Origin: Polyangiaceae bacterium
GTDB lineage: Bacteria > Myxococcota_A > Polyangia > Polyangiales > Polyangiaceae
Assembly: GCA_009781005.1 (NCBI GenBank)
Contig: WQYX01000014.1
Coordinates: 1,937 to 65,936, forward strand
Direction of reading: 5' to 3'
Length of the DNA stretch: 64,000 nucleotides
The notes below the pieces were generated by a model, which did no database searches, was not told the origin of the DNA, and worked only from the letters and a program-made list of their open reading frames with translations. The translations under genes and the position numbers were made by a program. Shown here in pieces: positions 6,769 through 57,799 of this stretch (positions are counted from its first letter, which is position 1; every line of letters starts with the position of its first letter).

Positions 6769-6891
6769 GACCGCTTTCGAGTTGACGCGAGATCGAGGCG
6801 GGGCCGAGGAGCGGACCGGAACAGCCTGCTTCGGCTTTGAGGACCGCACCGCAGGCCCTAACGACGAGATCGCGTCAAATCGAAAGCGGTC
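6769..6891 (-). mobile_element. 123-bp MITE-like palindromic element, copy 1
   Basis: Ends GACCGCTTTCGAGTTGACGCGA / CGCGTCAAATCGAAAGCGGTC; near-identical to the reverse complement of the copies at 23944, 49690 and 57677. Confidence 0.9.
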
Positions 6892-18191: not shown

Positions 18192-18542
18192 TTACTGCGC
18201 TGCGCCTTCGAGGGCGATGAGGCGCGCCTCATGGTTGTCGAGCCTGACGTTGATGCGCTTCACCTCGTCAGCAACCTCCAAGACCGCAAGCTGGGTCAAC
18301 TTCACGTCATGTGCGACGTGGTCGATCCTGGCGCTCAGTTCCTCATGAACGTGGTCGATCTTGGCGTCGAGCCTGTCCATCCGCGTCTCGAGCCTGTCCA
18401 TCCGCGTCCCGAGTTCGTGAAATTGGTCCGCGACGGTCTGACGAAAATCTTGCACCTCGGACAAGACCTGCACCATCAGCCTCTCGAGTCTTTCGGCATC
18501 CACAACGATCACGCTAGCATGAGGGGGGGCACGCCGCGGCAA
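18192..18542 (-). CDS. Small coiled-coil heptad-repeat protein
   Basis: LGTRMDRLETRMDRLDAKIDHV; start uncertain. Confidence 0.6.
   Translation of the reverse strand: MPRRAPPHASVIVVDAERLERLMVQVLSEVQDFRQTVADQFHELGTRMDRLETRMDRLDAKIDHVHEELSARIDHVAHDVKLTQLAVLEVADEVKRINVRLDNHEARLIALEGAAQ
18367..18408. repeat. 21-bp perfect tandem repeat, two copies
   Basis: TCGAGCCTGTCCATCCGCGTC x2, encoding a heptad. Confidence 0.9.
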
Positions 18543-18554
18543 ATCGAAAGCGGT
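18535..18554 (-). mobile_element. End remnant of the 123-bp element
   Basis: CGCGGCAAATCGAAAGCGGT is identical to the end of the 28523 copy; it abuts the pilQ stop codon. Confidence 0.75.
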
Positions 18555-20579
18555 TCAGCGGCCGAGGGCTTCGGCGCGGTTGACGATGCGAGGCGTGAGA
18601 AAGATGACGAGCTCGTTGCGTGTGTCGCTCGCGCGGCGGCGCTGAAAGAGCACGCCCAGGATCGGGATGTCGCCGAAGAACGGAACTTGATCGAGGTTGC
18701 GGCCGGTGTTGCGCGTGTAGATGCCGCCGATGACCGCCGTGTGTCCGTCCATCACGAGCAAGTCCGTTTCCGCTTCGCGCTTGAGGATCGTCGGATCGCC
18801 GCGCGCCGAGGTTTGGTTGAAGTCCGGTTCGTCGCGGTTGATTTTAACGTGCATCGAGACCGAGCCGTCGGCCGTGACGTGCGGGCGAACGAGGAGCTGA
18901 AGTTTCGCTTCCTGGAACGTCGTCTGAACGCCCTGCGCGGAGATCTGTGAAAACGGAATGAGCGTTCCTTGGCTGATACGCGCGTCGCGGTTGTCGAGCG
19001 TGAGGATGCGCGGGCTCGACACGATGCGGAGCAGACCGCTCGACTCGGCCGCCGAAAGACGGATGCCGATGTTGAAGTTGTTGTCGATCGAACCGAGCGA
19101 GATGCCGAGCGCGCCGCCCGCGCCCGTGCCGGTGGCCGCCGGGAGGTTGACCGCGAAGTTCGGTTGCGGGACGTTGCCTTGGAACGCGGAGAGGCCGCGT
19201 GAGTTCGTGTTCTGGTCGTAGTTGCCGCCCGCAATGCCGATTTGGGACGGGAACGCGATGCCGGTGGGATTGCCCGTGGCCTCCGAGAACGTCGCGTCAC
19301 CACCCCACTGGATGCCGATGTCGCGCAAGTAGCGGCTCGTTGCTTCGACGATACGCGCCTCCACGAGCACCTGCGGCGTCTGCGTGTCGAGCGAGCGAAC
19401 GAGCTCCTCGATGTTGTTCAAGTTGCCCGAGATGTCGCGCGCGATGAGAACATTGGTGCGTTCGTCGACCGCGATGGAACCGCGCGGCGAGAGCATGTCT
19501 TTGGCGCGCGCTTGGAGCTCGTCGGCGCGCGCATAGCTTACCGGGATGAGGCGCGTCTCGAGCGGCGTGAGCTCGTATTCTTGCTTGGCCGCAGCGAGAC
19601 GGAGCTCGCGCTCTTTCTGAAGCGCCGCAAGGGGAGCAACGCGAATCAAATTGCCCGCGCGCACCATGCCGAGACCCTTGGCTTGGAGAACGACGTCGAG
19701 TGCTTGATCCCACGGGACGTTGTTCATCTTGATCGTGACGTTGCCGGAAACGTCGTCGGCCGTGACGATGTTCACGCGTCCGACGTCCGCGAGCAGCCGC
19801 AGGATGTTGTGGATATCGGCGTCTTTGAGATCGAGGTTGATCCGGCGGCCGTTGTAACGGCCCGCCGCCTGCGCGTTCAACGTGGCCGTGAAGCCGGCGG
19901 CAACGCTCGCTCCTTGAACCTCGACGGCCATGTCGGAATTGCCGCCGTGAATCGATGTCTCCACGCGCGGGCCGTTATCTTCGAATTTCTCGCGCGCGAC
20001 CGTGACCGACTTGCGCAAGGTCTTGACCGTCGGCGCGCCCTTGGAGCCGTCCACGCGCACGTCGATGGGCTTTGCATCTTCGGCGGCGTCTTTGGGCACC
20101 GTGGCAGCGGACGACGGGGCCAACGCCTCCTTCGCGATGTCCGTCGTTTGTGCCGGCGTGAGATCGACCTTGAGCGACGAGCCTTCGGCGCGCACGCGGT
20201 AGGAAGCCTGGCGCGTGAGATTGACCGAGAGACGCGTGGTCATGCCCGCGTCCGTTCGAAACCCTTGCGTCAGAATGCCACCGACCACCCCCACGGGTGT
20301 CGTGATGGCTTCTTTCACACCGGGCGCGTCTGCATTCGAGATGTCGACGAGCAGGCGCTTGCCACCGCTGTCGACGCGGACGCTCCAGACCGGCGGCGCG
20401 GTGCCGACAATCTCGATCTCGGTTGCGCCGGATCCTTGATCCGTGGCGCGAACCTTGACGTCGCGCACGTGGTTCGACGCGTCATCCGCCGCGCTCGCCG
20501 TCGCCAAAAAAGCGATGGCTTGCGCCGCGAGCACAGGCAGCACCTTCTTGTGAATCGAGCCTCTCATCCGCCGTTGCAT
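18555..20579 (-). CDS. pilQ: Type IV pilus secretin PilQ
   Basis: AMIN-like N-terminus; GRRINLDLKDADIHNILRLLA; NVPWDQALDVVL; secretin C-domain ending VPFFGDIPILGVLF...ELVIFLTPRIV. Start uncertain (ORF track extends to 20663). Confidence 0.93.
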   Translation of the reverse strand: MQRRMRGSIHKKVLPVLAAQAIAFLATASAADDASNHVRDVKVRATDQGSGATEIEIVGTAPPVWSVRVDSGGKRLLVDISNADAPGVKEAITTPVGVVGGILTQGFRTDAGMTTRLSVNLTRQASYRVRAEGSSLKVDLTPAQTTDIAKEALAPSSAATVPKDAAEDAKPIDVRVDGSKGAPTVKTLRKSVTVAREKFEDNGPRVETSIHGGNSDMAVEVQGASVAAGFTATLNAQAAGRYNGRRINLDLKDADIHNILRLLADVGRVNIVTADDVSGNVTIKMNNVPWDQALDVVLQAKGLGMVRAGNLIRVAPLAALQKERELRLAAAKQEYELTPLETRLIPVSYARADELQARAKDMLSPRGSIAVDERTNVLIARDISGNLNNIEELVRSLDTQTPQVLVEARIVEATSRYLRDIGIQWGGDATFSEATGNPTGIAFPSQIGIAGGNYDQNTNSRGLSAFQGNVPQPNFAVNLPAATGTGAGGALGISLGSIDNNFNIGIRLSAAESSGLLRIVSSPRILTLDNRDARISQGTLIPFSQISAQGVQTTFQEAKLQLLVRPHVTADGSVSMHVKINRDEPDFNQTSARGDPTILKREAETDLLVMDGHTAVIGGIYTRNTGRNLDQVPFFGDIPILGVLFQRRRASDTRNELVIFLTPRIVNRAEALGR

Positions 20580-23151: not shown

Positions 23152-23945
23152 GAACAGCTATGAAGAGGACGGTCGCTTCTCTTGCGCTGTCTGCCGCGAC
23201 GCTTCTCGCGCCGGTTGCGCCTGCCCTCACGCCGAAGGCCGCGCCACTTGCTCCGTTGCCCATGCTCCCGAGCGTAGCCCGCGTGATCTTTTCGCTTGTC
23301 GGCGATGGGACGTCGTCCGCGAGGCAGGCCCTCGTCATCGAGGAAGTGAACTTGCCGCGTGGCGACTGGAAGGGTGAAGCGCTCGACTTCTACGTGGCCT
23401 ACGGCGCGCCAGGGGTTCCGCATGCCGTCGACGTGCGGCTCGTGCCGGTCGCGGACGGCTCGCTCGAAGCAGACGACCATGCGGCGGGGGTACCGGTGGC
23501 GATCGAGCGCGCGCCGCGACGACCTCCGAGCGCGCATCCTCTCCTCGGTCGTGACACGATGGCCGGCTTCGTCGTCCACCTCAAAAAGGAGCCCTTTGCG
23601 AAGGCGCTCGCCCAAGGCAACATGGCAACCTTGCGCATTCGCGCCGTCGTCGATCTCCGAGAGCCGCCCGCGCCGCAGCCGTACACGCTCGTCGTTCGCC
23701 TCGGAGCATCGCGCGGCAGTCCGCTCACACTCGGCCGGCTCGTCGTCGAAAACCGACCTGGGGCGGACGTCGTCGCGCGCGCGGAAGCTCGCCTTTGCGG
23801 CGCCGACGCCGATCCGCACCCGCTCGCGGTGGCGATCACGCCGAAGCCCGCAGAGGCGCTACCTCCATCCTTGGACAATGCACCGATCGCCCCCGTGCTC
23901 GCCGTGCGTCACGCCTCTGACGATCTCTGCGTGTCTCTCTGGTGA
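23148..23945 (+). CDS. Exported hypothetical protein
   Basis: ATGA overlap with the upstream stop; signal peptide; stop codon overlaps the element end. Confidence 0.65.
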   Translation: MRTAMKRTVASLALSAATLLAPVAPALTPKAAPLAPLPMLPSVARVIFSLVGDGTSSARQALVIEEVNLPRGDWKGEALDFYVAYGAPGVPHAVDVRLVPVADGSLEADDHAAGVPVAIERAPRRPPSAHPLLGRDTMAGFVVHLKKEPFAKALAQGNMATLRIRAVVDLREPPAPQPYTLVVRLGASRGSPLTLGRLVVENRPGADVVARAEARLCGADADPHPLAVAITPKPAEALPPSLDNAPIAPVLAVRHASDDLCVSLW

Positions 23946-24066
23946 CCGCTTTCGATTTGCCGCGATCTCATCGTTGGGGCCTGCGGTGCGGTCCTCAAAG
24001 CCACACAAGGCTGTTCCGGTCCGCTCCTTGGCCCCGCCTCGACCTCGCGTCAACTTGAAAGCGGTC
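23944..24066 (+). mobile_element. 123-bp MITE-like element, copy 2, between convergent genes
   Basis: GACCGCTTTCGATTTG...CAACTTGAAAGCGGTC fills the whole gap between the two stop codons. Confidence 0.92.
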
Positions 24067-25696: not shown

Positions 25697-27133
25697 ATGC
25701 AGCACGAAATGCTCTGGAACGAGGCCGTCGTCTTTACGCATGCCAAGTCACCGGCAAGCTTCGAACAGTGGTTTTCCGGCGTTCAGTTCGACGGAATCAC
25801 GGACGGCATCATCAGTCTCCGCGCGAGAGATGAGTTCGTGCGTGACTGGGTGGAACGGCACTTTCTGCCAACGCTCACCGACTACCTACGCAGTCAAACG
25901 GGCTGGAGCGTGCAAGTGGCGTGGAGCGTCGGTGGCGATCTCGAGCGTCCTGTTGCGTGCGGCATCTCTGAGCCCCCCGTGCGTCCGCGCGCTCTTGTTC
26001 CGTCGAGTGTCACGAATCGGTTGGCCGGGCGCATCTACGAGGAAAGCGCGACGAAGGCCCCAACCAGTGCTAGCGCCGGTGCGGCATCCGCGCGGCCCAA
26101 GCGGCTCGATGGGCTGAATCCGAAGTACACGTTCGCGAACTTCGTCGTGGGTCCGTCGAACCAGCTTGCTCATGCAGCAGCCATCGCGGCGGCTGGTGGC
26201 GGCGGCCCACGCTATAATCCGGTTTTCGTGTGCGGGGGCACTGGCCTCGGCAAGACGCATCTCGTGCAGGCCGTTGCCCATCGGTTTCGGTCAGAGCGAC
26301 CGAGCGCGCGCATCCTCTATGTGTCGGCCGAGCAGTTCGTCAACGAGTTCGTCCAGTCGCTGCAGGAAGGGCGAATGAGCGAGTTCCGCAATCGCTACCG
26401 CGGTCGATGCGATCTGCTCCTCGTCGACGACATCCAGTTCCTCGCCTCGAAGACGCAGACGCAAGAAGAGTTTTTTCACGCGTTCAACGTGCTTCACCAC
26501 GCCGACAAGCAGATCGTCGTCACGAGCGACAAGTATCCTCAGCAGCTCGAGCGAATGGAGGAGCGGCTCGTCTCGCGCTTCAAGTGGGGGCTCATCGCCG
26601 ACATCCAAGGCCCGGAGCTCGAGACGCGCGTGGCCATCCTCCGCAAGAAAGCCGAACTCGAACAGATCGAGCTCGAAAGCGATGTCATCCTCTTTCTCGC
26701 GCAGTCGATTCGCTCGAACGTGCGCGAGCTCGAAGGCACGCTGATCCGTCTCGCCGCGAAGTCATCGCTCCTTGGTCGATCCATCGATCTCGAGTTCGCC
26801 CGCCAGGAGCTCGCGGTCACCGTGAACCCGCGCCCGAACGAGGCAAGTGTGGACGACATTCAGCGCGTCGTCTGCCACCACTTCAAGCTCCGATCGAACG
26901 ATCTGCTTTCAAAGGACCGCCACAAGAGCGTTGCCTTCGCGCGCCACGTTGCGATGTATCTTTGCAAGCAGCGCCTCAAGTGCAGCTTTCCCGAGCTCGG
27001 TCGTGCCTTTGGCAACCGCGATCACACGACCGTGATGAGCGCCGTGCGCAAGGTCTGCAACCTCCGCACGAGCGATCCAGAAGTGCGTGCGCATCTCGAC
27101 GCCCTCGAACGGAAGCTCGGCACCACCGATTGA
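25697..27133 (+). CDS. dnaA: Chromosomal replication initiator DnaA
   Basis: LNPKYTFANFVVGPSNQLAH, GGTGLGKTHL, LLLVDDIQFL, SNVRELEG, FGNRDHTTVMSA. Confidence 0.97.
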   Translation: MQHEMLWNEAVVFTHAKSPASFEQWFSGVQFDGITDGIISLRARDEFVRDWVERHFLPTLTDYLRSQTGWSVQVAWSVGGDLERPVACGISEPPVRPRALVPSSVTNRLAGRIYEESATKAPTSASAGAASARPKRLDGLNPKYTFANFVVGPSNQLAHAAAIAAAGGGGPRYNPVFVCGGTGLGKTHLVQAVAHRFRSERPSARILYVSAEQFVNEFVQSLQEGRMSEFRNRYRGRCDLLLVDDIQFLASKTQTQEEFFHAFNVLHHADKQIVVTSDKYPQQLERMEERLVSRFKWGLIADIQGPELETRVAILRKKAELEQIELESDVILFLAQSIRSNVRELEGTLIRLAAKSSLLGRSIDLEFARQELAVTVNPRPNEASVDDIQRVVCHHFKLRSNDLLSKDRHKSVAFARHVAMYLCKQRLKCSFPELGRAFGNRDHTTVMSAVRKVCNLRTSDPEVRAHLDALERKLGTTD

Positions 27134-27189
27134 CCGCTTTCGATCCGCTCCTCGGCCCGCCTTGATCTCACGTCAACTTGAAAGCGGTC
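27132..27189 (+). mobile_element. Internally deleted (58-bp) copy of the element
   Basis: Both ends present (GACCGCTTTCGAT...CGTCAACTTGAAAGCGGTC); overlaps the dnaA TGA. Confidence 0.85.
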
Positions 27190-27272: not shown

Positions 27273-28523
27273 TTGCCGATGACTCGCTCAAAAAGGACAT
27301 TCGCCGTTGCGACCAACTTTGCATTCCTTCTCGTGTGCGCGTCGCCCGCGTGCGCGGTTCGCCTGACGGATAAAAATTCGCCTGCAGACAACGGCGCAGT
27401 CACCGGTGCACCGGTCGACTGCTTGCAGATTACACCGGTTGGAACCGGCGCACCCGGAACCGCTGCGGCGCTGAAGCTCGTCGGCCGCTACGACATGACC
27501 GATCCAGCAGGCGCGAAGTTCGACTGGTCCGGCAACTACATCACCGCGAGCTTCAACGGAACCGAGGTGAGCGCGGGCATCGAGGTACCAGAGGGCCAGG
27601 ACAACGACTTCGTGTTTACGGCGGTCGTCGACGATTTGCCGCCCATCAACTTCAGGGTCACGCCGCAACAGAAGTCGTACCTGATTGCCTCTGGTCTGCC
27701 TGCCGGCGATCACGAAGTCGTCGTCATGCGCAACAGCGAGGCGCTCAACGGCACGACGATCTACACGGGCTTCAATTTCGGAGCAGACGGCGTGCCCCTG
27801 CCCCCTACGGAGCGTCCACGACGTATCGAGTTCATTGGCGACGCCATTACGTGCGGCTATGGAATTTTGGGAACCAACGCGAGCTGCCCGGACGACATCG
27901 AGATCCGCGCAGCAACGGAAAACATCTACCTTGCTTACGGCTCGCAGACGGCGCGAACCCTCTCAGCGGACGTCGTTACAACGTGCTTCTCAGGAAAGGG
28001 CGTCGTCTTCAACTACCAAGAAAAACCGAATGATCTCGACGCAACGACGACGATCCCTCAGTACTACGAGCGGACGATCGCCACGCAGGCCGACCCGCCG
28101 TGGAGCTTCGCGGAACCGGAGCCCGATGTCGTCGTGATCAGCGCCGGAACGAGCGACTTCATGCGCGACGTAAACATGGACGGGATTGCGGATGGCATCG
28201 ATCTCGATGCGTTCCACGACGGCTACCTCGCCTTCGTGAAGTCCGTGCGTTCCCGCCGGCCGAACGCGCACATTTTCATGGCGGTCTCGCCCATGTTGAC
28301 CGACGAGTTTCCGCTCACCAATTCGCGCAGGGACATGCGCGACGTGCTCGGCCGCATCGCGAGTGAGATGGCGGATTCGGGCGACATGAAGGTTTACCGC
28401 ATCGAGTTCGTGGAGATGGGCGACCGTTACGGGTACGGGTGCGAATATTATCCGAACCTCGACGTGCATCGCATCATGGCCAACCAGCTCGTCGGCGCCA
28501 TCCGCCAGAAGACATGTTGGTAA
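27273..28523 (+). CDS. SGNH/GDSL family (CE2-like) protein with substituted catalytic residues
   Basis: FDWSGNYITASF N-domain; RIEFIGDAITCGYG; AGTSDF; YGCEYYP. Confidence 0.82.
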   Translation: MPMTRSKRTFAVATNFAFLLVCASPACAVRLTDKNSPADNGAVTGAPVDCLQITPVGTGAPGTAAALKLVGRYDMTDPAGAKFDWSGNYITASFNGTEVSAGIEVPEGQDNDFVFTAVVDDLPPINFRVTPQQKSYLIASGLPAGDHEVVVMRNSEALNGTTIYTGFNFGADGVPLPPTERPRRIEFIGDAITCGYGILGTNASCPDDIEIRAATENIYLAYGSQTARTLSADVVTTCFSGKGVVFNYQEKPNDLDATTTIPQYYERTIATQADPPWSFAEPEPDVVVISAGTSDFMRDVNMDGIADGIDLDAFHDGYLAFVKSVRSRRPNAHIFMAVSPMLTDEFPLTNSRRDMRDVLGRIASEMADSGDMKVYRIEFVEMGDRYGYGCEYYPNLDVHRIMANQLVGAIRQKTCW

Positions 28524-28645
28524 ACCGCTTTCAAGTTGACGCGAGGTCGAGGCGGGGCCGAGCAGCGGACCGGAATAGCCTTGTGTGGCTTTGAGGACCG
28601 CAGCGCAGGCCCCAACGATGAGATCGCGGCAAATCGAAAGCGGTC
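28523..28645 (-). mobile_element. 123-bp MITE-like element, copy 3
   Basis: (A)ACCGCTTTCAAGTTGACGCGA...CGCGGCAAATCGAAAGCGGTC; begins within the TAA stop. Confidence 0.92.
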
Positions 28646-44630: not shown

Positions 44631-44921
44631 GGAGGAAGCATAAACCCCTTTCGATGCCACCAATGGATGTTGTCATCATGCAACTTTTTGGTTGCCTGAT
44701 GGGAGTGGTCTCACCGGTGCGCCTCGCCTCCTTTGCCATGGTACGAATGAGCCCCCTTGCGCGACAGCACCACGACCCGAAAGACTCCTTCGATAAATGT
44801 GCTGCGATGGATGGATGCAACGAATGGGTGTGGTCCTCGTCATCCTTGGCGTCACGGCCCAAGCCGTGGTGGATGGGGCTTATTAATATCTTCGTCACAC
44901 CGTTCTCTGTATCTTCGTCGC

Positions 44922-46285
44922 ATGACTCCGACAATGTCAGCAATCGATCCGTCGATCATAGCTCCCGAGACATTTGCGACGGTGGTTGGTCTCGCATTCG
45001 GCGCGATCTTCTTGTTCATCGTGATCGCGGCCGTGAGCAAGAACCTCCTCTTCATCTGCGCACCGAACGAGATCCTCGTTTTCTCGGGCCGCAAGCGACG
45101 CCTCGCGGACGGAACCGTCTTGGGTTTCAAAGTGATTCACGGAGGTCGTGCGTTCCGCATCCCGCTGCTCGAGACGGTGGCGCGGATGGACGTGCGCCTC
45201 TACGGGATTGAACTCACGGTGTCGAACGCGTTCTCGAAGGGAGGCATCCCGCTCAATGTCCACGCGATCGCGAACGTCAAAGTGTCGACCGATCGGCGTT
45301 TCGTTCATCACGCCGTCGAGCGCTTTCTCGGTGTGCCGCCCGCACAGATCCTCACGGTTGCGCGACAGACCCTCGAGGGTGTCCTGCGCGAGGTCCTGAG
45401 CCAGCTCACCCCCGAGGAGGTGAACCAGGATCGCCTCAAGTTCGCCCAGACGCTGATGAACAACACGAAAGACGACTTCGACAAGTTGGGGCTCGAGCTC
45501 GACGTGCTCAAAATCCAGAACGTGTCCGACGATCAGAAGTACCTCGCCAACTTGGGGCGCGGCCAGATCGCGAACATGCTGCGCGACGCCGAGAACGCGG
45601 AGAACGCAGCGGCGCAAGAGCAGGCGCAGGCGCAGGCGCAGGCACGCCAGCTCGCCGAGTCGGCGGCCCAGCAGGCCGAGGCGCAGGTGCTACAGAAACA
45701 GAACGCGTTCCGTGCCGAGATCGCCAAGCTCGAGGCGCAAGCGAAATCGATCGAGAACGAGGCCGAGATCGCCGCCCAGACAGCGCAGGCGACAGCGGAG
45801 CAGGATCTTCAGGCGCTGCGCGCCGAGCTCGCGAAACTGACTCTTCACGTCGACGCCGTGCTTCCGGCGGAAGCCAATGCGCGCGCGAGTGCAGCCCGAG
45901 CCCGTGGCGAAGCTGCTCCCACGATCGAGAACGGCAAAGCGGCGGCGGAGGCACTGAGTCTCGTTGCGAACGAATGGACGAACGCCGGAGCCGCTGGCCG
46001 TGACGTCTACGTTCTCCAACAGCTCGACACGATCGTTGCAGCAGCGATCCAGCGCGTCCGCGATCTCCGTATCGACGCGCTGGAGGTGGTCGACGGCGGC
46101 GACGCCGAGAGCGTCGCATCGGTCCTCGCGATGTTTCCGCGCAGCGTGACACGTGTCCTCGAAGAGATCAGCGGGGCGATCGGTGTCGACGTTCGCTCCC
46201 TCGTCGCGGCACGCGCGCCGATCGACCGCGGAGGCGTACGCCCGACAATGCGTCCTGCCAGCCCTGATTCGAACAAGGAGGCAAC

Positions 46286-46289
<4 letters not shown>
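44922..46289 (+). CDS. Flotillin/SPFH domain protein
   Basis: CAPNEILVFSG, SKGGIPLNV, TLEGVLREVLSQLTPEEVNQD; Ala/Gln coiled coil. Confidence 0.9.
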
Positions 46290-47530
<1,241 letters not shown>

Positions 47531-47544
47531 CGTCCATTCGATCG

Positions 47545-49080
47545 ATGGCATCCCGACGCGTTGCGCATCCGTGTGTGCCGTCGATCCTTCTCGTTCTTGC
47601 ATCCTACACGTATCGGTTGCCGCCGCTGCTCAACGCGCGCTCGACCAACTCGGACGCGGCTGTCGTCGGGCTGCAGGCGACGCACATCCTGCGAGGCGAG
47701 TTCGCGCCGTTCTTGTGGGGTAGCGGCTACCAAACAGCAGCGGACTCGTTCGTCGCAGCGGCATGGTTCGCGGTGCTCGGCCCATCGCCGCTCGCGCTGA
47801 TGCTCTCAGCGCTCTCGCTCCACGTTCTTTCGACGTGGCTCGTGTTCGCAACGCTCCGTCGCCACCTCGCGCCTTGGGTAGCGCTGCTCGTGACGATGCC
47901 GCTCATCGTTGCGCCAAGCTCGGTGCATAGTTACGCGCTCTATCCGCCGCGGCAGGCATCGCTCACGCTTGCTATCGCAGCGTTTTGGGCCATCAACGCC
48001 GCGGCGCTCACGACCACCGAGCGGCGCGTGCGCCTCTGGCTCGCCGCAGGCGGATTCTTCGCAACACTCGCGGTGTCGGCCGATCCGTATCCTTTGCTCC
48101 TTCTGCCCATCGCCGGTCTCTTCGCGCTCTTCATCGCGTGGCGCACCGTACCCCGCACGCGCGTCATCCGCACGATCGGCTTCGCTGCGGGCGCATCGAT
48201 CGGGCTCGTGCCGTTCTACGTTCTGCATCGCCTCGCCGGCTCGAAGAGCGGCCCCATGACGTTCACCACGTCGATGCTCGATCATCACTTTCGGCTCTTG
48301 TGGAACGAGTGCCTCCCATGGGCACTCAGTTACAAGGTGTATTATGCACATCACGTGATGGACTACCTGCCGTGGGACGCGCCGCTCGCGTTCCGCGTCG
48401 TGGGAGCCGTCGGCGCCGTCATGCTCGGTGCACTCGTCCTCTTCGGCCTCGCCGCCATCTTCTTGCGAAGTATACGCACGATCCCGCTCTCCCTTCGCCA
48501 GCTCGGATTTTCAGGTGCACTCGCGTTCCCCGTGACGATCTGCGGTTTTCTCGTGTCGGTCATGGTCATGGACCATTTCTCGATGCGCTACCTCGCGATG
48601 CTCACGCTCATGACGCCGTTCGCGGTGGCACCGGCCGCTGCAGCGCTCGGCACGCGCCGCTTCGCCATCGCGTTCGCGCCGCATCTCCTCGCCTCCGCCA
48701 TCGCGGGATGGGTCGGCTACGGACCTTTCGTGCGCGGCGTTTGGCCGGTCGTCGAGACGCCGGAGCTCCGCGACGACGTCGCGTTCCTCAATCTGCTCCG
48801 CGAGCGCGGGATTACGTACGCCGAAGCGGATTACTGGGCCGCATATCGGCTCACGCTCCTGTCGAAGGAGAGCATCGTCGTCGTTCCCACGAACGCGGTT
48901 GAAGATCGCTACGCGCCCTACCGGCGCGCCTTCGAACGAGCACCGGTCTTCGCGTACCTCTTCGATCCAGCGCGCTCGCGCGAGAACTTCGCAGAGATCG
49001 AACGAACTCTGGTCGCGACAAACGCTCGCGTGGACGGCTATCGCGTCGGTCATCTGACGGCCTTGCTCGTCACCCGCTGA
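47545..49080 (+). CDS. GT-C-like membrane glycosyltransferase
   Basis: NSDAAVVGLQATHILRGEF loop, more than 10 TM segments, ADYWAAY. Confidence 0.65.
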   Translation: MASRRVAHPCVPSILLVLASYTYRLPPLLNARSTNSDAAVVGLQATHILRGEFAPFLWGSGYQTAADSFVAAAWFAVLGPSPLALMLSALSLHVLSTWLVFATLRRHLAPWVALLVTMPLIVAPSSVHSYALYPPRQASLTLAIAAFWAINAAALTTTERRVRLWLAAGGFFATLAVSADPYPLLLLPIAGLFALFIAWRTVPRTRVIRTIGFAAGASIGLVPFYVLHRLAGSKSGPMTFTTSMLDHHFRLLWNECLPWALSYKVYYAHHVMDYLPWDAPLAFRVVGAVGAVMLGALVLFGLAAIFLRSIRTIPLSLRQLGFSGALAFPVTICGFLVSVMVMDHFSMRYLAMLTLMTPFAVAPAAAALGTRRFAIAFAPHLLASAIAGWVGYGPFVRGVWPVVETPELRDDVAFLNLLRERGITYAEADYWAAYRLTLLSKESIVVVPTNAVEDRYAPYRRAFERAPVFAYLFDPARSRENFAEIERTLVATNARVDGYRVGHLTALLVTR

Positions 49081-49113
49081 CCACACGGCGAATTAGATTC
49101 GTCGCTGTTCGCG

Positions 49114-50712
49114 ATGTCGAGGCTCACCGATTATCGGCGCAAGCGTCGAGCGGAGGCAACCAATGAACCGTTCGACGAGACCGAGCCGCGCTCACAGAGA
49201 GACGCGGAGGGCAAGACGCTCTCGGGCGCCTTCGTCGTTCACTTGCATCATGCAAGGAGACGCCACTACGACGTTCGATTGCAGATCGGATCCGTGCTTG
49301 CGAGCTTTGCCGTGCCGCGCGGGCCAAGTCTCGATCCGAAGAACAAGCACCTTGCGATTCACACCGAAGATCACCCGCTCGACTACCTCGAATTCGAAGG
49401 CATCATTCCCGAGCATCAGTACGGCGCAGGCCCGATGATCGCGTGGGACCGCGGGATCGTGCGCTACCTCGACGGCCCGGCGGAAGAAGGCATCGAGAAG
49501 GGAAAGCTCCATGTCGAGCTCGAAGGCATGAAGCTTCACGGGCAATGGATTTTCGTGAAGCTCGCCAAGAGCAACAAAGGCAACGAGTGGCTCTTCATCA
49601 AGAAGCAAGACGAGCACGCAAGTCATGAACGCATCCTCGTCGATGAGCTCCCACGTTCGATCTACTCAGGGCTGACCATCGACGAACTAGACCGCTTTCG
49701 ATTTGACGCGATCTCATCGTTGGGGCCTGCGCTGCGGTCCTCAAAGCCAAGAGGCTGTTCCGGTCCGCTGCTCGGCCCCGCCTCGACCTCGCGTCAACTT
49801 GAAAGCGGTCTCGAACTCGCGTCCGAACGCGCCCCATCGAGCCACCGTTCGAAAATCTTCTGGCCCGAGGAAGGCATCACGAAGAGCGATCTTTGCGACT
49901 ATTACGAAGCGATCGCGACCGCGATTCTCCCGTATCTCGAGGACCGCCCCGTCCTCCTCGTGCGCTCTCCAGACGGCATCGCGGGCAAGAGCTTCTTCCA
50001 GTGGAACGTGCCGCCTGGGATGCCCGCGTGGGTGCGCACGCTGCCGCTCGAAGACGACGAAGGCAGACCGCGGCGGGGTTTTCTCGTGAGCGACCGCGAG
50101 ACGCTCCTCTACATCGCGAATCTTGCGGCGATCGCGCTTCATATCCTCGCCTACCGCATGCCGAAGGTCGACGAGGCGAACTTTCTGACGATCGACTTCG
50201 ACGTGAAGCAATCAAACTTGCATAACGCAATCATTCTCGCAAACGCGCTGCGCGAGATCCTCGAAGCGATCGATCTGCCGGGCTTTGTGAAGACGTCGGG
50301 GCAGTCCGGCCTGCACGTGCTCGTGCCGCTCGGCAAAGGTCAGAGCTTCGACACCGCGCGTACGCTCGCTCATCTCCTCGGGTGTCTGCTCGTCGAAGAG
50401 TGGCCCGATATCGCCACCATGGAGCGACATGTAGAGAAGCGCGGCGAGCGCGTTTATATCGACACCGGGCAGACCGGGGCAAGCCGCGCGATCGTCGCAC
50501 CGTACTCCGTGCGCGCCGTTCCCGGCGCCACGATCTCGACACCCGTCGGCTGGGAGGAGCTTTCCGGGGATTTCGATCCGCGCGCCTTCACGATGAAGAC
50601 CGTTCCCGATCGCATCGCGAAGATAGGTGATCCGATGAAGGCCATGCTCGTTGCCAAGCCCGATGTTGCCGCCGCCGTCGCCGCGCTCTCGTCGCTGTGT
50701 ACGAAAGTATGA
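49114..50712 (+). CDS. ligD: LigD-type protein: 3'-phosphoesterase plus primase-polymerase domains, no ligase domain, with an in-frame element
   Basis: PE motifs HHARRRHYDVRL and HTEDHPLDY; POL motifs KIFWPEEGITKSDL, IDFD, KTSGQSGLHV, VYIDT. Confidence 0.88.
   Translation: MSRLTDYRRKRRAEATNEPFDETEPRSQRDAEGKTLSGAFVVHLHHARRRHYDVRLQIGSVLASFAVPRGPSLDPKNKHLAIHTEDHPLDYLEFEGIIPEHQYGAGPMIAWDRGIVRYLDGPAEEGIEKGKLHVELEGMKLHGQWIFVKLAKSNKGNEWLFIKKQDEHASHERILVDELPRSIYSGLTIDELDRFRFDAISSLGPALRSSKPRGCSGPLLGPASTSRQLESGLELASERAPSSHRSKIFWPEEGITKSDLCDYYEAIATAILPYLEDRPVLLVRSPDGIAGKSFFQWNVPPGMPAWVRTLPLEDDEGRPRRGFLVSDRETLLYIANLAAIALHILAYRMPKVDEANFLTIDFDVKQSNLHNAIILANALREILEAIDLPGFVKTSGQSGLHVLVPLGKGQSFDTARTLAHLLGCLLVEEWPDIATMERHVEKRGERVYIDTGQTGASRAIVAPYSVRAVPGATISTPVGWEELSGDFDPRAFTMKTVPDRIAKIGDPMKAMLVAKPDVAAAVAALSSLCTKV
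49690..49810 (+). mobile_element. 121-bp copy of the element, in frame inside ligD
   Basis: Both TIRs intact; 2-bp internal deletion relative to the other copies; ORF stays open. Confidence 0.93.
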
Positions 50713-50780
50713 AAAATATGAAAAGTATGAACGCGTCCGCGGCTTGACGCGCCTCTCGAGCCACGTCATCAGGAAGCGCT

Positions 50781-51443
50781 GTGGCAGCCAGCTATTTCGA
50801 TGTGGACGGGACCATGGTTCGAACGAACCTGATCCACCCAACGCTCTATTACCTAATGCATCAGCGCACGCCGGTGCGCAGCCTGCAAAAGCTCGCCTTC
50901 GCGGCGCTTCGCTCGCCCGTCTTGGCCTGGGCCGAGATGCAGGACCGTCGATTGTTCAACGAGATGCTCTTTTTGGCATATGAAGGGATCTCGCAAGACC
51001 GGTTGCAGATCCTTGCCGACGACGCTTTCGAGAGCGTGCTGAAAAAAGCCATTTTCCCCCATGCACGAGATCTCGTGGCGCGCTGCCGCAACGAAGGCCA
51101 CGACGTCGTGCTCATCTCGGGCGCGCTGGATTTTTTGATGACGCGCCTGGCCGATCACCTTGGCGCCACGCACGTCATCGCGAACCGCCTCGAGATCAAA
51201 GACGGCTATGCAACCGGACGGTTGCTTCGGCCCATCGTTGCCGGTCCGGAGAAGGCGCGCCTCGTGCGCGAGCACGCGCGAGAACGCGGTCATGATCTCA
51301 ATCAGTGTTTTGGATATTCTGACAGCTATTCGGATGTGCCGATGTTGAGTGTGGTCGGCCATCCCGCGGCCGTGAATCCGGATAGCAAACTCAAACGCCT
51401 CGCACGCACCTATGGCTGGCCGGTGATTACACTCGACAGCTGA
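50781..51443 (+). CDS. HAD-IB family hydrolase
   Basis: FDVDGT, LISGA, K, YSDSYSDVPML. Confidence 0.93.
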   Translation: MAASYFDVDGTMVRTNLIHPTLYYLMHQRTPVRSLQKLAFAALRSPVLAWAEMQDRRLFNEMLFLAYEGISQDRLQILADDAFESVLKKAIFPHARDLVARCRNEGHDVVLISGALDFLMTRLADHLGATHVIANRLEIKDGYATGRLLRPIVAGPEKARLVREHARERGHDLNQCFGYSDSYSDVPMLSVVGHPAAVNPDSKLKRLARTYGWPVITLDS

Positions 51444-57662: not shown

Positions 57663-57676
57663 GGGCGCGCAGACTA

Positions 57677-57799
57677 GACCGCTTTCGATTTGACGTGATC
57701 TCATCGTTGGGGCCTGCGGTGCGGTCCTCAAAGCCGAACAAGGCTGTTCCGGTCCGCTCCTCGGTCCCGCCTCGACCTCACGTCAACTTGAAAGCGGTC
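57677..57799 (+). mobile_element. 123-bp MITE-like element flanked by TA on both sides
   Basis: TA-GACCGCTTTC...GAAAGCGGTC-TA (TA at 57675-76 and 57800-01). Confidence 0.93.

Follow-up and report, generated by a model that had tools for sequence, protein, structure and literature searches.

Rickettsia and a few other lineages supply the best-known examples of palindromic repeats that lie in frame within genes. Other palindromes, the REPs, are about 20–40 nt, G+C-rich, and associated with RAYT transposases. Rickettsia palindromic elements (RPEs) are about 100–150 bp in length, with many in-frame insertions in unrelated genes (Ogata et al., 2000, 2002; PMC10969869); their conserved peptide occupies fold-compatible positions, and copies are also found outside genes (PMC10969869). 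QMITE1/2 of Coxiella burnetii form in-frame fusions or C-terminal extensions (PMC5896051), and ERIC, BOX, and the Anabaena MITEs are bacterial MITEs with occasional in-frame insertion or stop-codon supply (PMC10969869). [quoted passage not shown]

The window (the whole 64 kb stretch of DNA that was analysed), from an uncultured termite-gut member of the Polyangiaceae, contains a palindromic MITE-like repeat of 121 bp within a ligD gene (49690–49810, forward strand). This copy is read in phase 0 (GAC CGC TTT …) and encodes DRFRFDAISSLGPALRSSKPRGCSGPLLGPASTSRQLESG; the junction peptides at the edges of the insert are …TIDELDRFRFDAISS… and …SRQLESGLELASER…, and the LigD insert is about 41–43 residues long, for an inserted length of 123 or 129 nt, and rich in Ser, Pro, Gly, and Arg. 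The arms (GACCGCTTTCGATTTGACGCG and CGCGTCAACTTGAAAGCGGTC) make the repeat a near-perfect palindrome, which as single-stranded DNA is predicted to fold into a single long hairpin (-40.8 kcal/mol, z = -5.97). Relative to the 123-bp copies in the window, it has 2 nt fewer in the central loop (AAAGCC AA--GAGGCT). The preliminary description had reported an in-frame repeat inside ligD, as the sole intragenic copy in the window, and this was borne out: the remaining copies in the window are intergenic.

The host ORF (49114–50712, forward strand; 532 codons plus stop) is intact and, by the gene order membrane protein–LigD–HAD that Labilithrix/Polyangiaceae genomes share, is the positional orthologue of a three-domain LigD. 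It encodes a LigD 3'-phosphoesterase domain (PF13298, residues 43–149, Pfam E = 1.5e-36; 49240–49560, forward strand) and a LigD primase-polymerase domain (PF21686, residues 256–508, Pfam E = 1.4e-72; 49879–50637, forward strand), both modelled by AF2 with high pLDDT. The ligase domain is missing. There is no Pfam match to an ATP-dependent ligase domain (PF01068 plus OB fold) in the ORF and no remnant of one in the window, and by comparison with orthologues the entire domain of ~254 residues is gone (nothing in the window corresponds to residues 197–450 of P0018). All close syntenic orthologues have the three-domain PE-Lig-Pol architecture, and the 119 homologues with 60–72% identity are 712–817 aa long, nearly all with a Pfam ligase-domain match. 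Thus, the gene is not the complete ligD that had been assumed as host; the insert does lie between PE and Pol, but this is not a simple insertion between the two, because close orthologues hold the ~254-aa ligase domain there. The junction left by the loss falls at approximately 49818–49848 (forward strand), between …ELAS and …SHRSKIFWP, on the 3' side of the repeat, from which it is distinct, and within about 10–35 nt of it.

The AF2 model built from 119 sequences has a mean pLDDT of 82.6 (a first run with nine sequences, at pLDDT 42.9, was uninformative), and its sole long stretch below 50 is residues 196–236, the insert, for which low values are expected in any case because no homologue carries it. 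The insert is probably a tolerated, disordered linker. A search of RNA runs for the ligD gene found none with it.

The repeat is bracketed by a 6-bp direct repeat, CGAACT, of which the left copy (49683–49688, forward strand) ends one base from the left end of the repeat, and the right copy (49812–49817, forward strand) is followed by native E-L-A-S. On the left the window sequence reads GACGAACT-A up to the repeat, and on the right T-CGAACTCGCG from it onward, whereas at this site the orthologues have GAC GAG CTC GCG (D-E-L-A) unbroken; native sequence resumes 3' of the repeat, and the two flanks are thus those of a single insertion. Among 61 copies, about 0.3 would be expected to have a 6-bp repeat in their flanks; the ligD copy alone does. 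A 2-nt target duplication, as had been proposed, could not be upheld: the flanks of the ligD copy are TA and TC, TA in the family stands mostly on one side (on both sides in 4/61 copies), and direct repeats in the flanks of 61 copies, searched with flexible boundaries, occur at no higher frequency than shuffling of the flanks gives. This family-wide search being negative, the additional 2 nt are deduced from the in-gene length classes only.

Twelve sites in the window match the arm pattern, where chance would give 0.01, and the family is represented there by five full and two partial copies (about one copy per 10 kb). Besides the ligD copy, 123-bp copies are located at 6769–6891 (intergenic), at 23944–24066 (first two bases overlapped by the stop codon TGA of the upstream gene, 23943–23945), at 28523–28645 (first base overlapped by the upstream stop TAA, 28521–28523), and at 57677–57799 (TA/TA flanks; first base overlapped by the upstream stop TAG, 57675–57677). 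An internally deleted copy (27131–27189) overlaps the dnaA stop codon, and a solo arm is present at 18535–18555 (reverse strand); many solo arms of the family are present. By depth, the family amounts to about 1,200 copy-equivalents in the metagenome (single copy = 1).

Most copies are 121–124 bp and without transposase-coding capacity, and the many copies are dispersed over unrelated sites; each unit has conserved 21-nt arms and forms one hairpin in its entirety. Rfam contains no family matching the repeat, and a profile of the repeat-encoded peptide gave no significant match among 5.8 billion proteins, returning 12 word-sharing candidates only. An arm-pair scan of the fetched loci found two long pairs (334 bp and 2,731 bp), and no arm pair around a transposase-sized element, such as an autonomous partner would present, was identified in about 0.5 Mb of these loci. 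The repeat is described here as a very abundant, probably non-autonomous, MITE-like family, typically of 123 bp, in uncultured termite-gut Polyangiaceae. It resembles the bacterial MITEs in being probably non-autonomous, with inverted-repeat ends and many, mostly intergenic, copies, but differs in that target-site duplications are not detectable among the 61 copies, no autonomous partner was found in the same 0.5 Mb, and the unit is one entire hairpin rather than terminal inverted repeats around a core. It is also like REP/BIME sequences, as an abundant palindrome without target-site duplication that stands just after stop codons and has many solo arms; unlike them, its unit is 121–124 nt with 21-nt conserved termini, and it enters genes.

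Copy length and reading phase distinguish the copies within genes. In a census of 64 distinct full copies, drawn from the window and about 0.5 Mb of the sister MAG, five lie in Pfam-supported genes, with lengths of 121 bp (window ligD), 124 bp (L010, L021, and L034), and 139 bp (L127). All five lengths are 1 mod 3, and all five copies are read in phase 0, so the rule put forward in the preliminary description, by which repeat length plus 2 is a multiple of 3, holds throughout. Copies with a length of 1 mod 3 are in genes in 5 of 15 cases, compared with 0 of 49 for other lengths (Fisher p about 4e-4, by our own arithmetic). In two of the three phases a stop codon follows at once, a TA|G formed at the boundary or a TGA in bases 15–17 of the repeat; phase 0 alone stays open across the repeat, in either orientation. 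With one open phase and the need for a length of 1 mod 3, purifying selection would therefore clear 123-bp copies from genes. ORFs that span seven other copies (L019, L024, L026, L033, L141, L144, and L146) were not accepted as genes, being without Pfam support; most of their translations are Arg-rich.

The five host genes encode an Rsm22-like methyltransferase, an Eco57I-type methylase, a UvrD-like helicase, an MFS transporter, and LigD. These insertions are distributed over two genomes and both orientations, and the peptide DRF(R/Q)(F/V)DA…SRQ(L/I)ESGL is encoded in all. In the MFS transporter the insert is in the central loop and is missing in homologues of 70–75% identity; the insert that one relative carries there is shorter, pointing to decay and not to conservation. 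The analogy with RPEs that had been drawn for the segment between PE and Pol is supported, and the insertion recurs in five unrelated, otherwise intact genes: both families are short palindromes in frame in unrelated genes, and the likeness is one of insertion mode. The families differ in host (Polyangiaceae vs. obligate intracellular Alphaproteobacteria) and in that in-gene copies of the Polyangiaceae family are 5/64, come from rare length classes, and follow an explicit one-phase, 1-mod-3 rule.

The 121-bp type is not private to ligD. It is the sole full-type copy of that length within the window, as first described, but not beyond it: in the source metagenome, Logan unitigs with an exact match across the short centre reach a depth of 159–252, 4–6 times single-copy, vs. 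38–41 for the ligD flanks; the short-centre k-mers are present in run X3, from which the ligD flanks are absent; and a Logan contig of 9,980 bp (depth 38) aligns over all 121 nt without gaps. These other 121-type copies are known from k-mer depth and the one gapless contig match alone; exact-pattern scans gave no match for the ligD left flank or the short centre in JGI metagenome contigs, and none for the short centre in genome contigs, and yielded neither an empty-site allele nor a second assembly of the ligD locus. In the sister MAG, nine of nine 124-bp copies have the same extra nucleotide, three of them in genes and six outside that gene set. Because the short centre occurs elsewhere and the extra base is shared by nine copies, the length variants pre-exist and are filtered.

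The explanation that we consider probable is that a pre-existing 121-bp variant inserted in a ligD gene already devoid of its ligase domain and passed a filter of purifying selection on length variants. On this explanation, ligD would first have lost the whole ligase domain (~254 residues) by a separate in-frame deletion, and a 121-bp copy from a pre-existing length class would then have inserted into the short tether left behind. The host frame would be regained only for a repeat length of 1 mod 3, and selection would let through the rare 121-, 124-, and 139-bp variants where these fall in phase 0 within a loop or linker. For LigD, the outcome would be a segment of about 41–43 residues, tolerated as a tether that joins two folded domains, both intact, and we infer that the protein may have remained in use.

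An unlikely, though serious, alternative is that ligD is a dying remnant: NHEJ would be dispensable in the gut clade, the repeat would be tolerated in an unselected gene, and the open frame would reflect luck and ascertainment. The loss of the ligase domain is consistent with this, as is the situation in the nearest related (sister) genome. There, ligD is gone from the syntenic site, and a single repeat copy, abutting the neighbouring genes, is all that lies between the same flanking genes. Additionally, the window LigD is the most deviant of 120 homologues, with 29 deviations at 258 conserved columns vs. a median of 3 (about 24 after exclusion of five insert/linker columns that are probable alignment artefacts), a comparison biased by the position of the query as outgroup to its own match list; as a test for relaxed selection it is likewise biased by sequence choice, and is treated as a hint only. 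The substitutions include D46H, T48R, and E57Q, which adjoin the PE active-site histidines. The window ligD gene may be decaying, and 'domesticated', the word first used for the insertion, ill suits a host gene that lacks the ligase domain, is the most deviant of 120, and has no counterpart at the syntenic site of the closest genome. Against a dying remnant, however, the 532 codons are free of stops and frameshifts, and the deletion and the insertion are both in frame, for which the chance is roughly 1/3 x about 0.08 (our estimate from family length and phase frequencies). Furthermore, the motifs HLH..HYD.R, DFD, and KTSGQSGLH, invariant across the 119-sequence alignment, are kept, and both domains retain 60–72% identity and are modelled at high confidence. 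Two-domain PE-Pol proteins without a ligase domain also occur naturally, in Acidobacteriota (L073, 538 aa) and Ignavibacteriales (L048, 505 aa); the two-domain state of the window LigD differs from these in its derivation, by deletion from a syntenic three-domain orthologue.

We regard it as doubtful that the repeat itself caused the loss of the ligase domain, through recombination between flanking copies or a transposition-associated adjacent deletion, leaving the present copy as a scar. The family is extremely abundant, the repeat lies within about 10–35 nt of the deletion junction, and the replacement of ligD by a single copy in the sister genome is what such a process might produce. However, native E-L-A-S (DNA CTCGCG) follows the repeat and matches the orthologues after D-E-L, and CGAACT brackets the copy; therefore, the repeat is in intact native sequence and not on the junction. 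In addition, a frame set by deletion endpoints gives no reason for a length of 1 mod 3, for which the prior is about 15/64.

It is similarly hard to credit, though conceivable, that the repeat evolved a 'translatable' design for the colonisation of coding sequence, and that the LigD insert is adaptive, having extended a tether of about 20 residues to about 60. Such a design would consist of a sequence that is stop-free in one phase in both orientations, a flexible peptide, and 1-mod-3 subfamilies; if true, an RPE-like strategy suited to a gene-dense genome would have arisen independently in Myxococcota. The native PE-Pol tether of the window LigD is about 20 aa, compared with 50–80 aa in natural PE-Pol proteins, and the adaptive tether, if real, would have restored a length of about 60 residues, as in those proteins, after the ligase domain was lost.

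The compensatory deletion of the preliminary description, in which a 123-bp copy with a 2-bp duplication frameshifted ligD and the frame was recovered when 2 bp were subsequently lost from the loop, with domestication of the segment as a linker, is now highly improbable. It had in its favour that no other copy in the window is 121 bp long, that the missing 2 nt fall in the hairpin loop (the most variable part of the repeat), and that a 123-bp copy would shift the ligD frame. A frame-restoring deletion after insertion is contradicted by the short centre in several other copies, at 4–6 times single-copy depth and in a run without ligD, and by the second gapless 121-nt copy on a contig of the same depth as ligD. 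The in-gene 124-bp copies of the sister MAG are also members of a subfamily of nine that have one indel in common, six of the nine being outside those genes; the family is without detectable target-site duplication, and a function of the peptide has no support. Least credible of all is an assembly artefact, in which the contig was mis-joined through the repeat, with two copies collapsed or two loci joined: the source is a short-read termite-gut metagenome assembly (ERZ27257292, runs X1/X2), and Logan k=31 contigs end 25–27 nt inside each arm, none spanning the repeat, which leaves the join dependent on the MEGAHIT k141 contig and on the 6-bp repeat that the flanks have in common, but both flanks come from ligD and agree in orientation, frame, and depth (41.5 and 38.4), they share that direct repeat and together rebuild the orthologous D-E-L-A, the 121-bp repeat is shorter than the final assembler k of 141 (taken from the contig name k141_219565), and the ligase-loss junction is within a single unique Logan contig (49786–50813).

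The Polyangiaceae family adds an unrelated in-frame palindrome family, from uncultured termite-gut bacteria, to those described. It also offers an unusually clean view of the filter that acts on such insertions, in which selection on pre-existing variants can be told apart from compensatory repair. For annotation, repeat-derived peptides can be mistaken for novel linkers, and the window 'LigD' would, judging from the absence of the ligase domain in its sequence, be unable to ligate. The locus appears to record the stepwise erosion of ligD, and with it NHEJ, in a gut clade, the window genome being without the ligase domain and its relative without the gene altogether; repeat copies are present at both ligD scars.

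The copy of the palindromic repeat in ligD is 121 bp long (49690–49810), has 21-nt inverted termini (GACCGCTTTCGATTTGACGCG ... CGCGTCAACTTGAAAGCGGTC), and as single-stranded DNA forms one long hairpin (-40.8 kcal/mol, z = -5.97). The window has 12 matches to the arm pattern, where chance predicts 0.01. Four other full copies, all of 123 bp (6769–6891, 23944–24066, 28523–28645, and 57677–57799), exceed the central loop of the ligD copy by 2 bases, and there is also one internally deleted copy (27131–27189) and one solo arm (18535–18555); all window copies other than the ligD copy are intergenic. The dnaA gene (478 aa) ends inside the internally deleted copy (both within 25697–27189), so the window probably takes in the region of the chromosomal origin. 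In a scan of GTDB species representatives, the arms are almost confined to a single genome, that of the termite-gut MAG Polyangiaceae bacterium Emb289P4bin44, which is also the closest relative at the ligD locus (HAD hydrolase, 91% aa identity).

The repeat-bearing ORF (49114–50712, 532 aa) has Pfam domains on both sides of the repeat, LigD_N (aa 43–149) and LigD_Prim-Pol (aa 256–508), confirming that the repeat, translated as DRFRFDAISSLGPALRSSKPRGCSGPLLGPASTSRQLESG, lies in frame inside ligD. That a complete ligD simply received the insertion, as first proposed, is wrong or unproven: of the 119 best homologues (from Labilithrix and Polyangiaceae; 712–817 aa, 60–72% identity over aligned parts), almost all have a Pfam ligase domain separating the phosphoesterase (PE) and polymerase (Pol) domains, and in the window protein ~260 alignment columns, from ...SGLTVEEL to ...NRxKIFWP, are empty, with the repeat peptide within this gap. 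By tblastn, residues 7–196 and 451–725 of a homologue (P0018) match either side of the repeat, and residues 197–450 have no match anywhere in the window. The genes flanking three-domain ligD are retained in many relatives (upstream membrane protein, 58–63% identity; downstream HAD hydrolase, 79–85%); judged by these shared neighbours, the window gene is their positional orthologue, minus the ligase domain. Two-domain PE-Pol proteins with tethers of 50–80 residues occur in Acidobacteriota and Ignavibacteriales (35–39% identity), and LigD domain combinations vary (PMC7719229), so that by analogy a ligase-less architecture could plausibly work as a protein.

In the AlphaFold prediction (119 sequences), both LigD domains are confident (mean pLDDT 82.6) and pLDDT falls below 50 at residues 196–236, the repeat insert; this would fit a flexible tether, although low pLDDT is equally expected for a segment without homologues. 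Domestication of the insert is not borne out. In the sister MAG ligD has been lost: the interval syntenic to 49040–50800 (L148:7780–8020, contig WQZB01000047.1) has no ligD between the membrane-protein and HAD genes, only a 123-bp repeat copy within a ~160-bp spacer. Non-homologous end joining (NHEJ) thus seems dispensable in the clade. This loss gives a hint that the window ligD, too, is a purely decaying gene, as does its count of 29 departures from consensus in 258 highly conserved columns (median 3, next-highest 18). The comparison is biased, the query being an outgroup to the homologues it is set against; roughly five of these columns are in the insert or linker, where misalignment is the probable cause, and even without them no other sequence departs as often. 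Pure decay is opposed by an unbroken ORF, by a deletion and an insertion that are both in frame, and by retention of the motifs invariant in the 119-sequence alignment. Downstream of ligD, GCGGCTTGACGCGCCTCTC (50736–50760) looks like the repeat arm TTTGACGCGATCTC and aligns with the end of the sister genome's copy (GCGGTC/TTGAC); this could be either a leftover arm or a coincidental match. Two tandem Band_7/SPFH genes (44757–47530), which share a 54-nt stretch at 81% identity (45044–45097 and 46360–46413), are missing where the sister MAG is syntenic.

At the insertion site, orthologues read continuously GAC GAG CTC GCG (D-E-L-A...); the window has GAC GAA CT-A at the end of the left flank and T-C GAA CTC GCG TCC at the start of the right. 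A 6-bp direct repeat, CGAACT, hence stands one base beyond each end, with native E-L-A-S next; it is found only at the ligD copy among 61 family copies, and with shuffled flank pairings a repeat of at least 6 bp is expected in ~0.3 of 61. The flanks are consistent with 123 + 6 = 129 nt added to ...DELAS..., and also with 121 + 2 = 123 nt added to ...DELELAS.... Under either reconstruction the repeat sits within native sequence, with the deletion junction a few codons downstream (~49818–49848); insertion of the repeat and deletion of the ligase domain are separate events.

The contig (k141_219565, 68,098 bp; ENA assembly ERZ27257292) has 98% of its locus k-mers in two termite-gut metagenome runs, whose Logan contigs are identical in length and almost identical in depth, so that one data set was probably deposited under both and the runs do not provide independent support. 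An assembly artefact at the repeat is very improbable: Logan contigs break inside it (left flank up to 49716, depth 41.5; right flank from 49786, depth 38.4), leaving its central 70 nt unspanned, but the two junctions between flank and arm, like the deletion junction, were assembled independently, and the CGAACT common to the two flanks speaks for a single insertion rather than two collapsed copies.

The 121-bp form is not special to ligD. Exact unitigs across the short centre have depths of 252 (49722–49756), 159 (49727–49762), and 187 (49733–49781) in one of these runs, against ~40 for the flanks; unitigs spanning this centre exactly are also present in a run from a different sample, where the ligD flanks are absent, and a Logan contig of 9,980 bp (depth 38) aligns without gaps to all 121 nt. 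The preliminary description's unique 121-bp copy is thus unique within the window only, and these findings match, at least in part, the outcome (a 121-bp variant common among intergenic copies) that it had named as counting against its reading.

In-frame insertions of MITEs or palindromes are established for Rickettsia palindromic elements (RPEs), Coxiella QMITEs, and others (PMC10969869, PMC5896051); in the literature searched, nothing tied MITEs to Myxococcota in this sense. The family has most features of MITEs, with no detectable target site duplication in the family and no autonomous partner identified, and behaves like RPEs, a likeness of behaviour and not demonstrated kinship. The window and 64 blocks of the sister MAG together contain 64 distinct full copies, of which 37 measure 123 bp and nine 124 bp; the other lengths are represented by one or two copies each. 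With Pfam support on both sides of the copy as the criterion, five lie in genes: the window LigD (121 bp), an Rsm22-like methyltransferase (L010, 124 bp), an Eco57I/N6 DNA methylase (L021, 124 bp, opposite orientation), a UvrD-like helicase (L034, 124 bp), and an MFS transporter (L127:4031–4169, 139 bp, within the transporter's central loop). Seven further copy-spanning ORFs lacked family support and were dropped; most of their translations are Arg-rich. Dozens of solo arms occur in the MAG loci, and another short palindrome (e.g., GTAGGGGCGTATGGCCATACGCCCCTAC) is nested beside single arms at L001, L017, L020, L027, L028, L133, L137, and L141, giving composite variants of 131–173 bp.

All five in-gene copies have a length of 1 mod 3, start at codon position 1, and share the peptide DRF(R/Q)(F/V)DA...SRQ(L/I)ESGL, which sustains the proposed RPE analogy; the proposed mod-3 logic also holds, with 5 of 15 copies of 1 mod 3 in genes vs. 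0 of 49 others (Fisher p ~4e-4). The extra base is identical in all nine 124-bp copies (CTCGCC-G[A/G]-CCGCC), six of them outside the in-gene set, so this length class has been passed on by transposition and did not arise at each site. With this inherited indel and the short centre in other copies, a compensatory 2-bp deletion in ligD is wrong or unproven, and the earlier interpretation is right only in part.

The phase rule arises because a stop closes each of two phases, one (TA/G) at the boundary of the repeat and the other (TGA) in its bases 15–17. In keeping with this, three copies in the window and the one at L148 start exactly at the end of the upstream gene's stop codon: TGA 23943–23945, TAA 28521–28523, and TAG 57675–57677 overlap their first base(s), and at L148 the membrane-protein TAG is flank TA plus the first G of the repeat. 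The repeat thus seems to insert at, or create, stop codons, meaning that C-terminal truncations are tolerated or that TA in stop codons is preferred. Homologues at 70–75% identity lack the MFS insert. A JGI relative at 88% identity (P0122; L147:930–1000) carries, at that site, an insert of ~60 nt that may be a decayed remnant; if so, copies read in frame survive speciation and become shorter.
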